From NCBI GenBank assembly GCA_964343575.1, contig CAYFJV010000002.1, forward strand, positions 375,809 to 395,808: a DNA stretch of 20,000 nt, in the 5' to 3' direction. How positions within the stretch are numbered: position 1 is the stretch's first letter; the number at the start of each line of letters is the position of its first letter. This DNA is from an uncultured Methanosarcinales archaeon (GTDB lineage Archaea > Nanobdellota > Nanobdellia > Woesearchaeales > GW2011-AR9). Below the pieces are notes generated by a model, which searched no databases, was not told the DNA's origin, and was given only the letters and a program-made list of their open reading frames with translations. Both the position numbers and the translations under genes were made by a program. Positions 2,731 to 8,051 of this stretch are shown here, one piece after another.

Positions 2731-3867
2731 TTACTTCCTAGAATACAGTGCCCTAGCTTTCTCTACCAATTCTGGTTGGATGTAATGCTTTACCGTTACC
2801 GTTGAGCGTTCTTCCCAAACATTATGTTTTTTATTGTAGTGCTTATGGCCAAGTTCTTTGGCAATGTTTAGGAAAAGAGAATTTACTTCGGCTTTACTTG
2901 CTGATTTTCTTCCTTTGAGGAATTTTTTCACTTCTTCGGTAGCGTAGTGTGACCTTACAATGTGAGGGTAGAATTCTTCTCCACAATATTTGTGAAAGGC
3001 TTTCTTGAACTCCTTCTCTGGCAGAGGCCTGCCACTTTTGGTAGCAAAGACAAAATCATTTCTTTTTTTACTTCGCATTAGCGCAGCTAATCTTTGTAGA
3101 TATTTTGCTGGGAAGTGCTTGCTAATATTTTGTGGCACACCATCTTTGCCAATGAATTTGAATGTGGCAGTTTGCTTCTTTTTGTTAAGTGTGATGTCTT
3201 TTTTCTTGATAGTGGAAAGTCCTTTGTGTTGGTGTTGCTTGAAATAGATCTCATTACCAATTCGCATTTTGGTGTGCAGAAGAGTGTACATTGGAAGTGC
3301 CATGGGATCTTCATAGTTCTTAAGTGCAGAGTTCACAGATCGTTGAAGCTTTGGGTAATGCTTTGCAAAGTTGTGCACTTTTCGATATTTTTTCTTAGTT
3401 GCCTTTGCCTTCTTTTCTTTACTGTAAAGGTAGGCAAAAGTTCCTCCCTTGTTCTGGTAAAGCACATCCCAATGATCATGATTTGTTTGGTCATGCACGG
3501 TTAGTTTTTTTGCAAAAAGAGAATAGGCTGCATTAAGTGAAGTTCCATCTGGAAGGGTGGTGAGTCTTGCTCCCTTCGGGTTGCCTTGTGGGTCACGCAT
3601 GCCTTTGAGAAATTGAGGATCTTTAGTGTCTCTTAGGTCGCTGAGCCGGTGATGCGCTTTGAATAACTTGATAACTTGCTGAGCTTCAGGAAGTTTTATT
3701 TTTGAGCGTTTCCAACCTTTGGCTGTCTTCTCATAAACTTTTAGATTTCTTGCTTTTATTCTCAATGTTCCAGAAGGAAGAGTTGTCTTGTTAGCCTTTT
3801 TTGCTGTGGCTTTTCTCTTGTTGTTTGTCCTTTGTCTTTTTACTTTGCTAAGAAGTTTTTTGAGCAT
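2731..3867 (-). CDS. DNA topoisomerase IB, compact bacterial/viral type
   Basis: Catalytic pentad in order: R202 (MRIGNEIY), K241 (FKFIGKDG), R305 (PHIVRSHYAT), H341 (ELGH), Y362 (KHYIQP). Also GLSTIKKKDI and KYRKVHNFAKHYPKL segments typical of TopIB. Confidence 0.85.
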   Translation of the reverse strand: MLKKLLSKVKRQRTNNKRKATAKKANKTTLPSGTLRIKARNLKVYEKTAKGWKRSKIKLPEAQQVIKLFKAHHRLSDLRDTKDPQFLKGMRDPQGNPKGARLTTLPDGTSLNAAYSLFAKKLTVHDQTNHDHWDVLYQNKGGTFAYLYSKEKKAKATKKKYRKVHNFAKHYPKLQRSVNSALKNYEDPMALPMYTLLHTKMRIGNEIYFKQHQHKGLSTIKKKDITLNKKKQTATFKFIGKDGVPQNISKHFPAKYLQRLAALMRSKKRNDFVFATKSGRPLPEKEFKKAFHKYCGEEFYPHIVRSHYATEEVKKFLKGRKSASKAEVNSLFLNIAKELGHKHYNKKHNVWEERSTVTVKHYIQPELVEKARALYSRK

Positions 3868-5343: not shown

Positions 5344-5431
5344 CTTCTACCCTTAGCTATACTTTTTGTTTATTTAAGTTTTGTTTTCTTCCTCGTAATA
5401 TTTATATAAAACTGAGGGGTAGCTTTTGTTC

Positions 5432-7039
5432 ATGGGAAAGGAAGCTAAAAAATCTGATTCAGGTTCTCAGAAGATGTATCACTGGACTGATTTTACTGCA
5501 GAGAAAGTGATTCGTGAGAAAGGTGATAAAGGTAGTTACACTGTTGCAAGTGGCATCACTCCTTCTGGTGTGGTGCACATTGGGAACTTTCGAGAAATCA
5601 TGACTGTTGAGCTTGTCAAACGTGCTTTGGAGAAACGAGGGAAAAAAGTGCGCTTTATCTATTCTTGGGATGATTATGATGTATTTAGAAAGGTACCTAA
5701 AGGTATGCCACAGCAAGAGATGCTTCAAGGACAGCTTCGAAGACCAATAGTGGATGTTCCAGATCCACATGGAAAAGAAGAGAGTTATGCAAGGTATCAT
5801 GAGAAACAAATTGAAGAAGCGGTAAAGTTAGTCGGTATTGATCCAGAATTTATCTATCAAAGTAAAAGATATCGATCAAGAGATTATGCAAAGGAGATGA
5901 AGTTTGCTTTAGATCATGCTGCAGAGATCAGAGAAATACTCAACCAGTTTCGTGAAAACCCTCTTGATGATTCTTGGCTTCCAATTGGAATTTTTTCTAA
6001 GAAGTTTGGAACCGATGTGGTTAGTAATGTTCGTTATGATGGAGAATGGTCAGTAAGTTATGATCTTGAAGATGGAACAACAGAAACGGTTGATCTTCGT
6101 AAGGATGGTAATGTGAAACTGAAGTGGCGAGTGGATTGGCCAATGCGTTGGAACTTTGAACAAGTGGATTACGAGCCGGGAGGAAAAGACCATTCAACTG
6201 CAGGTGGAAGTTTTGATACAGGTAAACAAATTATTCAAAAGCTTTGGAAAAGAGATGCTCCAACTTATATCATGTACGATTTTGTTCGAATCAAAGGCCA
6301 AGGTGGAAAGATCTCTAGCAGCAAAGGAAATGTTGTTACCCTCTATGATGTTTTGGAAGTTTATGAGCCTGAGATTGTGCGTTATCTTTTCGCAGGAACT
6401 CGTCCAAACAGAGAGTTTGCGATCTCTTTTGATGTAGACGTTATTGCAATGTATGAAGATTTTGATCGTTGTGAACGAGTTTATTTCGGAGTTGAGAACG
6501 GAAAGATCAGTGATAAAGATCGCGAGAAATTGAAGGTAGCTTATGAGCTTAGTGCAGTTGGCGAAGTACCTAAGGAGATGCCTTATCAACCGAGCTTTCG
6601 TCATTTGACTACTATTTTGCAGATCAATGCTCTTGATGTTGATAAGACGGTTGGTTACTATGAGAAAGAACTTAAGAATGATTTTGATCGTAAGCGCTTA
6701 AGGACAAGGGCGACCTGTGCTGCTAATTGGCTTAAGAAATATGCTCCCAAAGATTTCACTTTTAGTGTTCAGGAAGAATGTAGCGTTGAACTTTCTGACT
6801 CTGAGATGAAATTATTCTCTGAGATTGCATCTAAGCTTGTTGAAAAGGAGTGGACAGACACTGCTTTGCATGAAGAGATGTACATTTTAGCTAAGAATAA
6901 TGGTGTTCCAGTTAAAGATTTCTTTAGGCAGGCTTATCGGATTTTGGTTGGGAAGGAGAAAGGACCACGGTTAGCATCTTTTATTTTAGAGATAGGAAGG
7001 GAGAGGGTTGCTGGCCTTTTAGAAAAAGCTGTTGCTTAG
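5432..7039 (+). CDS. lysS: Lysyl-tRNA synthetase, class I
   Basis: SGITPSGVVHIGNFRE (HIGH), SWDDYD.FRKVP, KLKWRVDWPMRW, EPGGKDH, KISSSKG (KMSKS), C-terminal GPRL. Confidence 0.98.
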   Translation: MGKEAKKSDSGSQKMYHWTDFTAEKVIREKGDKGSYTVASGITPSGVVHIGNFREIMTVELVKRALEKRGKKVRFIYSWDDYDVFRKVPKGMPQQEMLQGQLRRPIVDVPDPHGKEESYARYHEKQIEEAVKLVGIDPEFIYQSKRYRSRDYAKEMKFALDHAAEIREILNQFRENPLDDSWLPIGIFSKKFGTDVVSNVRYDGEWSVSYDLEDGTTETVDLRKDGNVKLKWRVDWPMRWNFEQVDYEPGGKDHSTAGGSFDTGKQIIQKLWKRDAPTYIMYDFVRIKGQGGKISSSKGNVVTLYDVLEVYEPEIVRYLFAGTRPNREFAISFDVDVIAMYEDFDRCERVYFGVENGKISDKDREKLKVAYELSAVGEVPKEMPYQPSFRHLTTILQINALDVDKTVGYYEKELKNDFDRKRLRTRATCAANWLKKYAPKDFTFSVQEECSVELSDSEMKLFSEIASKLVEKEWTDTALHEEMYILAKNNGVPVKDFFRQAYRILVGKEKGPRLASFILEIGRERVAGLLEKAVA

Positions 7040-7061: not shown

Positions 7062-7187
7062 TGTGGACGGCAGGGTTCGAACCTGCGTAGGCACTAAGCC
7101 AATGGGTGTCTTCGCCAAGAAGACCTCAGAGATCTGAAATTTCTCGCCGCCTAAGCCCATCCCGTTTGACCACTCCGGCACGTCCAC
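7062..7187 (-). tRNA. trnL-UAG: tRNA-Leu(UAG) with 42-nt intron at 37/38; CCA not encoded
   Basis: Acceptor GTGGACG/CGTCCAC + A73. D arm CCG-GAGTGGTCAAA-CGG. Anticodon stem ATGGG/CCCAT with loop CT-TAG-G|A (anticodon 7153-7151). Long variable arm GGC-TTAGT-GCC. T arm GCAGG-TTCGAAC-CCTGC. Confidence 0.93.
7108..7149 (-). other. tRNA intron (relaxed bulge-helix-bulge)
   Basis: Removing these 42 nt restores a 7-nt anticodon loop. The central helix C32U33U34A35/GAAG has 3 pairs plus an A.G mismatch. The intron folds as a hairpin. Confidence 0.85.
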
Positions 7188-7240
7188 GCGAGCCTCGCGA
7201 GCGTGACGTTCAGTAATCTTCGATTACTCGCCACGTCCAC
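7179..7240 (-). repeat. 44-nt palindromic insert (7188-7231) flanked by a 9-nt direct repeat of the tRNA 5' end
   Basis: GTGGACGTG (minus strand) occurs at 7240-7232 and 7187-7179. Insert ends GCGAG...CTCGC are inverted repeats. Internal perfect hairpin AGTAATC-GAA-GATTACT. Confidence 0.75.
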
Positions 7241-7268
7241 ATGGATAGTGAATTCCTCTTTGTTTCTT

Positions 7269-7276
7269 TTTTATAT
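7269..7276 (-). promoter_or_regulatory. Putative TATA box for the tRNA
   Basis: Minus-strand ATATAAAA preceded by purine-rich AAAAG, about 29 nt upstream of the first GTGGACG copy. Confidence 0.45.
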
Positions 7277-7370: not shown

Positions 7371-8051
7371 ATGAAAAGGACAATAATTTATCTTAGTCTT
7401 ATCATGATCTTTGCTTTTTTTGTGAGCGCATGTACCATTACGGGCGCTGTTGTTAGTGAAGGTTGTGAAGCATTAGAAGGAAGCGAGCGTGATGTTTGTT
7501 ATCTTGATCTTCTTCAGTGTAGTAGCATTGTTTCAGATGACTTGAGAGATGCTTGTGTTGGAGAAATGGCGCAGGTGACTGCCGATCTTAGCGTTTGTGA
7601 ACTTATCCAGGATGAGAGTATCATGGGGCATTGCCAGCATGGTATTGCTTTGGCGCTTGCTGATGTGAGTATTTGTTCAGATATTACTGAAGAGTACTGG
7701 TCTGATAACTGTTATGCCAATTATGCAATGGAGCATGACGAAGGGAACCATTGTGCAGAAGTTTCACTTACTAGTCAGCGTGATACTTGTTACGATGATG
7801 TAGCTGTTGACCTCTTAGAGAGCTCTTTTTGTTTAGAGATTTCTGATGTTCCTGGTACTGACCGTTGTCTTTACAATGTAGCTCTAGGCTCTTTGGATCC
7901 GAGCGTCTGTGATTTGAGTTCAGACCCACTCTATGTTGCAACCTGTTATGCTAATTTGGCGGTGCAGATCGACAGTGAGGAAGTTTGTAATCAGATCGAG
8001 TACACAAGCCTTGTTGACGATTGTCTTTTGGAAGTTCGTTCAGCAGACTAA
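7371..8051 (+). CDS. Secreted/lipoprotein with cysteine-rich ~26-aa tandem repeats
   Basis: Signal peptide ending FVSAC then TITGAVV. About 8 units of C-x11-C-x13 (first unit shorter). Strongly acidic. Confidence 0.85.
   Translation: MKRTIIYLSLIMIFAFFVSACTITGAVVSEGCEALEGSERDVCYLDLLQCSSIVSDDLRDACVGEMAQVTADLSVCELIQDESIMGHCQHGIALALADVSICSDITEEYWSDNCYANYAMEHDEGNHCAEVSLTSQRDTCYDDVAVDLLESSFCLEISDVPGTDRCLYNVALGSLDPSVCDLSSDPLYVATCYANLAVQIDSEEVCNQIEYTSLVDDCLLEVRSAD

Follow-up and report, generated by a model that had tools for sequence, protein, structure and literature searches.

An intron and a 5' leader insert of an archaeal tRNA-Leu(UAG) gene, judged by sequence to be copies of one small double-hairpin element

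The intron of a tRNA-Leu(UAG) gene and the insert at the 5' end of the same gene are, as judged by their sequences, copies of one double-hairpin element of about 45 bases. The gene lies in the window (the whole 20,000-nucleotide stretch of DNA that was analyzed), which belongs to a genome of 1.21 Mb in six contigs, here called G000. A full copy of the element consists of YGGCG, a palindrome (P2) of 6 to 8 pairs with a loop of 3 to 5 bases, GAR, and a second hairpin (P3) that closes at the 3' boundary of the insert in every full copy. In introns, YGGCG is paired with the far end of the intron (P1), forming the inner helix of the splicing motif. We give a probability of about 0.5 to the reading that this small non-coding element spreads as DNA, brings no enzyme of its own, and is kept as a tRNA intron where its end pairs with the exon.

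Table 1. Features of the tRNA-Leu(UAG) locus and its neighborhood, in window positions.
Feature	Position	Strand	Evidence or remark
Class I lysyl-tRNA synthetase gene	5426..7039	+	convergent; synteny marker
tRNA-Leu(UAG)	7062..7187	-	ARAGORN with introns; Rfam RF00005, 46 bits
tRNA-Leu(UAG) 5' exon	7187-7150	-	
Anticodon	7153-7151	-	
tRNA-Leu(UAG) 3' exon	7107-7062	-	
42-base intron at 37/38, full element copy	7108..7149	-	ARAGORN; model R1, 22.8 bits, intron ends exact
P3 hairpin of intron copy	7108..7124	-	6 Watson-Crick pairs; closes at the 3' splice site
P2 palindrome of intron copy	7128..7144	-	decayed: 5 Watson-Crick pairs, 1 G-U, 1 mismatch
Leader insert, 53 added bases	7188..7240	-	9-base copy of the tRNA 5' end, then element copy
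P3 5' arm in leader	7203..7208	-	complementary to the first bases of the tRNA; can pair with either copy
Leader-copy core (YGGCG, P2, GAR)	7209..7233	-	model R1, 21 bits
Leader P2	7228-7212	-	7/7 Watson-Crick pairs
Stub (upstream copy of tRNA positions 1-9)	7232..7240	-	
TATA-like box	7268..7275	-	read by eye; inferred promoter
Cys-rich secreted-type ORF	7371..8051	+	divergent; no Pfam match; synteny marker

Taking out the 37/38 insertion restores the tRNA cloverleaf, and intron-less orthologues exist. The splicing motif of the intron is relaxed, with an outer helix of four or more pairs, a central helix of three pairs out of four, and an inner helix that breaks after one pair and then continues for six further pairs. 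A strict hBHBh' motif, with a 4-pair central helix and both flanking helices, was not found in this intron (4/3/1); a 4/4 central helix is present in 8 of the other 12 family introns tested. The 3' arm of its P3 contains a strand (7113-7110) that pairs with exon bases 32-35 (7155-7152), and its P2 is not predicted to form in the pre-tRNA. Genes for EndA, RtcB and RNase P RNA are present in G000, and the insertion is predicted to be an archaeal bulge-helix-bulge (BHB) intron that would be cut by EndA and joined by RtcB. A repeat finder confined to the window and ARAGORN run without introns missed both the hairpin pair and the tRNA. A sigma-70 promoter scan, of a kind that does not cover archaeal promoters, found nothing. 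Elsewhere in the window, a type IB topoisomerase-like ORF lies at 2731-3867 on the minus strand (Pfam Topoisom_I, E 6e-15).

The original prediction had matched positions 7126-7148 of the intron with 7210-7232 of the insert, and the match stands at 17 of 23 positions without gaps. It had also made the likeness depend on its significance against shuffled hairpins. A best 23-base match of 17 to the 42-base intron arose in only 2 of 2000 dinucleotide shuffles of the 53-base leader and in 3 of 2000 random leaders carrying a perfect hairpin. The A-T/T-A swap that it had noted is located in P2, and both sides of that pair have changed in 6 of 11 introns. Among 2.43 million windows genome-wide, 10 match the 23 intron bases at 17 or more positions; of the nine that are not the intron itself, four are copies of the family. 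Since the remaining five are unrelated, 17/23 alone is modest evidence, and the case rests on the family. Those five windows, together with the finding that the two copies rank only 32nd to 37th of 42 in mutual likeness, are what can be said for a chance resemblance of two hairpins; the rarity of such a match among shuffles, the place of both copies as top hits of a model built from other genomes, and an anatomy shared by 43 copies leave this explanation with a negligible likelihood, and the family has already refuted it.

The reading of both copies as two-hairpin units was right in that both second hairpins exist and that P2 and P3 are features of the family as a whole; the P2 of the intron itself has decayed. 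The 3' arm of the second hairpin differs between the two: the leader uses the opening bases of the tRNA itself, and the intron uses the strand that the splicing motif requires. The two copies are 55% identical overall. The closest copy to the intron is an intron of tRNA-Glu in another genome (G063, 79%), and the leader is closest to other leaders. As the two are not each other's nearest relatives, they are, on this comparison, separate arrivals and not the products of a local duplication.

The 5' insert is predicted to be a leader carrying a short repeat of its target rather than a second intron, and would be trimmed by RNase P. No BHB or relaxed motif was found in 7188-7240 at any of 13 placements within the repeat, and the downstream repeat copy forms the acceptor stem in the predicted fold of the leader-bearing tRNA. 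A second intron in the acceptor stem would fit the position of the stub, which lies at the ancestral distance from the TATA-like box (35 bases, compared with 32 between box and tRNA in the empty orthologue of the same-genus genome G001); introns at 3/4 do occur in Thermoproteales, according to the available part of PMC4090602, and a 4-pair central helix flanked by another helix can be drawn at 5/6 for 3 of 12 leaders from relatives. Given the lack of a relaxed motif at all placements here and in 7 of the 12 leaders, the predicted acceptor stem and the presence of RNase P RNA, we regard such an intron as very improbable.

The whole leader recurs before tRNA-Leu(CAA) in G000, with 81% identity over 89 bases in a BLAST search of the locus. 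The body and leader of this tRNA-Leu(CAA) (C2:46234-46378) are nearer to those of tRNA-Leu(UAG) than to the G001 orthologue, which suggests gene conversion between the two genes. Leaders made of a stub, a hairpin and the complement of the stub, with other hairpins and junctions, occur at tRNA-Leu in 8 other genomes out of the 114 of the family (strict pattern). Among 65 Leu genes sampled without regard to the motif, four have the same leader type, and two weaker cases were seen by eye. Because such leaders recur across the family, the 5' end of tRNA-Leu appears to have been targeted repeatedly. In the leaders at loci L035-L045, L050, L229, L245 and L253, a stub of 9-13 bases is followed by a variable hairpin and the stub complement; several junctions are used, and three allow a splicing motif at 5/6.

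Other copies genome-wide, which the original prediction had called for, were found: six in G000 and more in its relatives. The six comprise three tRNA introns (Leu, Glu and Asp), two tRNA-Leu leaders and one mRNA leader; a motif scan of G000 contributed the introns of tRNA-Asp and tRNA-Glu as well as the leader at the 5' end of a small ORF (C2:438462). The model R1 was built from 11 tRNA introns of other genomes in the order, gathered with a pattern drawn from the G000 copies, and it is not a fully independent test because its seed pattern came from G000. R1 ranks the six copies 1-6 of 10 hits in the genome, and the intron and the leader core are the best two of 4 hits in the window. The closest pair of copies in G000 agrees at 24 of 27 bases, and identical young copies are absent. 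The Glu and Asp introns of G000 are not among the six best matches (71-79%) of the window intron. Hairpin scans of G000 gave 14 hits, with 14 in the reversed control, under relaxed settings and 11, with 4 in the control, under stricter ones. A core-like palindrome followed by GAA lies within the RNase P RNA gene (G000 C2:176892), and an 18-base copy of the tRNA-Val 5' end lies upstream of that gene's promoter (C1:489765-489850).

A loose pattern matched 77 of 401 genomes of the order, mostly by chance within genes. Of 44 loci checked, including 14 picked as hairpins by eye, 6/6 pairs were present in 13, and 12 of these were tRNA introns. R1 hits were obtained in 12 of 114 genomes of the family and 16 of 151 of the order; the 77/401 and 16/151 tallies include five unpublished genomes (G400, G283, G389, G219 and G238) that enter no other claim. 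The 16 family hits outside G000 are 10 tRNA introns, three mRNA leaders (all in G001) and three partial hairpins, and the 16 new hits in the order are 12 introns, one tRNA-Leu(UAG) leader in another family (G240), two 23S rRNA inserts and one other. The total is 36 intron copies and seven full non-intron copies. The tRNAs for Glu, Gln, Leu, Ser, Asp and Met include genes with intron copies, which sit at 37/38 or in the D-loop. A search for the exact pattern in one genome per species (185,579 species) returned 15 stretches, of which eight are archaeal tRNA introns and seven are bacterial and outside tRNAs. Viral contigs gave no match for two patterns, and a metagenome scan gave a single, apparently coding, match. 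A variant of the element that starts with CACG instead of GGCG was seen in Arg and Leu tRNAs, within introns of the D-loop and of position 37/38 (G000 C2:171345; L113, L120, L158 and L013).

The pairing within the element was examined across introns. Over 24 intron hits outside the training set and one partial hit, in an alignment fitted to R1, P2 has a single G-U among 166 pairs, compared with 18 of 88 in P1; the purity of P2 is inflated because the training introns were picked by pattern and partly by eye for hairpins. Over 34 introns with 24 distinct arm pairs (two Asp introns, in which the element is nested in a longer intron, were left out), the 204 cells of P3 contain 175 Watson-Crick pairs, five G-U pairs and 24 unpaired positions. 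When P3 arms were permuted between introns, the mean was 124, and none of 5000 permutations was as high as 175. The pairing statistics for P2 (two-sided changes, 166 pairs) and P3 ignore the relatedness of the introns. Because of the pair purity of P2 and the permutation result for P3, both are taken to be real features of the family. Strict Watson-Crick arms can arise by neutral quasi-palindrome correction. The P2 loop is commonly GGA, GAA or AGA, and AAA, TCA or loops of 4-5 bases also occur. With DNA folding parameters, P2 and P3 form together in three of four introns; the window intron gave no double-hairpin fold with these parameters (z -1.12). A dimeric transcription-factor operator was set aside on account of the varying stem (6-8) and loop (3-5) lengths.

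A second fold, exclusive of the first, is a G-U-rich rod that carries the splicing motif; 5 of its 10 pairs show two-sided change, and a second count gave 13 of 24, compared with a null mean of 6.9 (1/500). Many introns hide P2 when folded as RNA, and the anticodon arm of the window tRNA favors the rod (-19.6 and -17.8 versus -11.4 kcal/mol). Two exclusive folds, each with covariation support, could point to a selected RNA switch or protein-binding motif (kink-turn-like; L7Ae or other) that gates splicing, tRNA maturation and translation. Such a role would also suit the mRNA leaders, in which the ribosome-binding site or its upstream copy is able to pair with the 5' arm of P3, and the kink-turn-like motifs in 10 of 29 Leu(UAG) introns of relatives, in view of the presence of L7Ae. 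However, each mRNA copy occurs in one genome only, the downstream genes are unrelated, the bulge has one base and not three, and antisense copies cannot act in the transcript; we consider this explanation improbable. Kink-turn-like motifs, with a three-base bulge and GA on both strands, were seen in tRNA-Leu 37/38 introns across the family (L007, L018, L033, L243, L244, L249, L250, L253, L255, L256 and many Leu(CAA) loci) and are possible L7Ae sites or guide RNAs.

The 3' end of the element differs between intron and non-intron copies. In intron copies, exon positions 32-35 pair with four bases within the 3' arm of P3. In the seven full non-intron copies, this arm finishes with 4-11 bases that repeat those immediately ahead of the insert; all seven sit at G|TG, and the 5' arm of P3 is the complement of the repeat. 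For two copies in G001, the repeat fits other copies better than its own target, which suggests that it arrived with the element there. Non-intron copies have an intron-like length, and some retain the 3' strand of P1. The bases upstream of the element vary between copies.

The original prediction had also proposed a search for empty orthologous sites, and these exist: tRNA-Leu(UAG) lacks both intron and leader, in a syntenic position, in G001 and G002, the two same-genus genomes compared with G000. The sites of the three mRNA leaders of G001 are empty in G000. The RPA leader site is empty in all 30 other loci examined in the family, G002 also being empty, and conserved regulation through the RPA leader was rejected on this ground. 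Partial copies antisense to transcription, consisting of the core only, follow tRNA-Lys in G000 and tRNA-Ser in G066 and are also located in two 23S genes. The 23S rRNA inserts of G157 and G284 (L221 and L224, about 1500-1526), in which the core is antisense, are possible rRNA introns.

Hairpin cassettes flanked by 8-14 base repeats of the tRNA 3' end were observed behind Arg, Lys, Tyr, Ile, Trp and Cys tRNAs (3' flanks; G000 C1:419728, 458407, 458906 and 459311; C2:12491 and 171479). In the tRNA-Lys cassette, which has the element core on the antisense strand, the distal repeat carries CCA and the gene does not; the same is seen for tRNA-Ser in L106. A tRNA-Ile with a UAU anticodon is found in all three genomes of the genus (G000 C1:459311-459438; L162 and L178). 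Archaea usually use a modified CAU for tRNA-Ile rather than UAU.

Of the proposal that one family inserted twice at this gene, once becoming an intron, the single family and the separate arrivals hold, and the birth of the intron from the element does not follow. A script found some intron at 37/38 in 25 of 29 Leu(UAG) genes, and it missed two further empty genes. One of the 29 has the element, 10 have kink-turn-like contents, and most of the introns have the same last bases. Because an intron is present at this site in 25 of 29 genes, the element may have replaced or entered an older intron. A quick single-gene (RPA) tree pairs G000 with G001 as sisters (support 94) and leaves G002 outside them; on this tree, one loss and one regain of the intron tie with two losses. 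For the leader, one gain would be the simpler history. Entry into an existing intron also happens, given that the Asp copy is nested in a longer intron.

An HUH (IS200/REP-associated) transposase had been suggested as the mover, and the link was not borne out. Neither a Y1 HUH transposase nor a reverse transcriptase (RT) was found in G000; R1 gave nothing better than E 1.1 over 20 Y1 loci, and no hit at the RT locus of G001. Y1 genes occur in 43 of 114 genomes of the family but in only 3 of 9 verified carriers of the element, one of them below the cut-off. That Y1 enzymes move a REP-like or IS200/IS605-derived palindrome in trans would be in keeping with the fixed tetranucleotide at the 5' foot of the DNA hairpin, which resembles HUH ends, with intron copies that have no target repeat and with the spread of Y1 genes in the family; considering the missing Y1 gene in G000, its rarity among carriers, the R1 result at Y1 loci, the target repeats of non-intron copies and the varying upstream target bases, we hold it to be highly improbable.

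The main rival to DNA uptake is an RNA route in which a tRNA intron lineage came first and moves between tRNA genes, as in Thermoproteales, by re-ligation of the excised intron into a cut RNA, which an RT acting in trans then turns into DNA, with leader and mRNA copies as escapes. Intron copies outnumber the others five to one (36 versus seven full copies), as an intron-first history predicts, and this counts against the DNA reading. The intron-like length of non-intron copies, some of which keep the 3' strand of P1, and the G-U rich RNA helices of P1 and the rod point the same way, as does the presence of RT in 51 of 114 genomes of the family, in one case (G001) 3 kb from an element-bearing tRNA-Ser. 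However, RT is absent from G000 and present in only 3 of 9 verified carriers, so that a link with RT is not supported; RNA ligation does not yield the target repeats seen at non-intron copies, and the antisense cores also speak against it. The RNA route is an unlikely explanation that nevertheless keeps some weight. As a separate observation, the RT gene of G001 lies near an integrase gene beside tRNA-Ser (L209 and L119, on C2) and is DGR-like, with an Asn-rich stretch at its 5' end that resembles the end of the gene before it, and with a GGA-loop hairpin.

Under spread as DNA, a single-stranded copy of the element would be taken up just after a G, possibly through a template switch while the host replicates or repairs its DNA; the 3' arm of P3 would match the target. 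Fold-back correction or selection might later preserve the match between the arms. Within a tRNA, survival would be limited to copies able to fold as a rod with a bulge-helix-bulge, EndA cutting and RtcB joining; where the target is a tRNA 5' end or a ribosome-binding site, the gene would be restored by the repeated bases of the target, and the leader 7188-7240 would be removed by RNase P. A further version is offered tentatively and is more doubtful than not: the element would be a retargetable mini-element, with a fixed DNA hairpin core and a second hairpin that takes on new arms, copied from the target, at every insertion, so that an insertion into a tRNA would itself supply the strand for exon pairing and be spliceable as a BHB intron from the outset. 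If true, the retargetable mini-element would be a direct source of archaeal tRNA introns for which host enzymes suffice. One 45-base unit is found as an intron, in the leader of this same gene and ahead of protein genes, which offers a handle on how archaeal tRNA introns arrive. Assays with EndA and RNase P, and assays of nicking and insertion, would find concrete substrates in its copies, whose junctions can be sought in population reads.

Several known systems were compared with the element. REP/RAYT, IS200/IS605 ends, Rickettsia palindromic elements and MITEs are short, non-coding, scattered, non-autonomous DNA hairpins, and in these respects the element is like them; unlike them, it shows no Y1 link and has no fixed inverted ends, and it has a variable target repeat and a target-dependent 3' arm. 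REP/RAYT and IS200/IS605 systems cause no target duplication and use a fixed target tetranucleotide, whereas the non-intron copies here bear repeats of 4-11 bases and their upstream bases vary. A MITE moved by a DDE transposase has fixed terminal inverted repeats and a target duplication of fixed length; the 3' ends of the element differ by target. Kink-turn and box C/D motifs have a three-base bulge beside tandem G-A pairs, whereas a single U stands between P2 and GA here, and no such Rfam hit was obtained. The literature searched, as far as its accessible parts go, yielded no description of a double-hairpin family (PMC5829648, PMC8632793, PMC12558985, PMC4390854 and bioRxiv 10.64898/2026.09.22.753630 among it). 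A 2026 census of Asgard archaea, in the portion available, calls the entry of intron DNA into archaeal tRNA genes the central open problem and reports no general route (bioRxiv 10.64898/2026.10.13.758758).

The DGR of DUSEL4 Nanoarchaeota has a short perfect DNA hairpin with a three-base GRA loop (PMC4372165, in excerpt). The element likewise has a short perfect hairpin, commonly with a three-base loop; unlike the DGR hairpin, its loops vary, variable and template repeats are absent beside the copies, and G000 has no RT. In Caldiarchaeum subterraneum, a tRNA-Thr gene carries an insertion of 1,868 bp with a putative recombinase (PMC3293823, likewise in excerpt), in contrast to an element of about 45 bases that is non-coding and found at unrelated targets with 4-11 base repeats. 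In Thermoproteales, families of transposed BHB introns extend across tRNA types and positions, and a mechanism at the DNA level is supposed (available parts of PMC4090602 and bioRxiv 10.64898/2026.10.13.758758). The element resembles them in that related introns occur in different tRNA types. It is unlike them in its additional presence in leaders, mRNA 5' ends and antisense trailers, in its two covarying palindromes, and in identity: the Asgard preprint, in the same parts, takes 80% between tRNA types within one genome as its criterion, and the window intron is below 80% to every other copy compared, with a best value of 79%. The double-hairpin family belongs with two known kinds, the transposed BHB introns and the small mobile palindromes.
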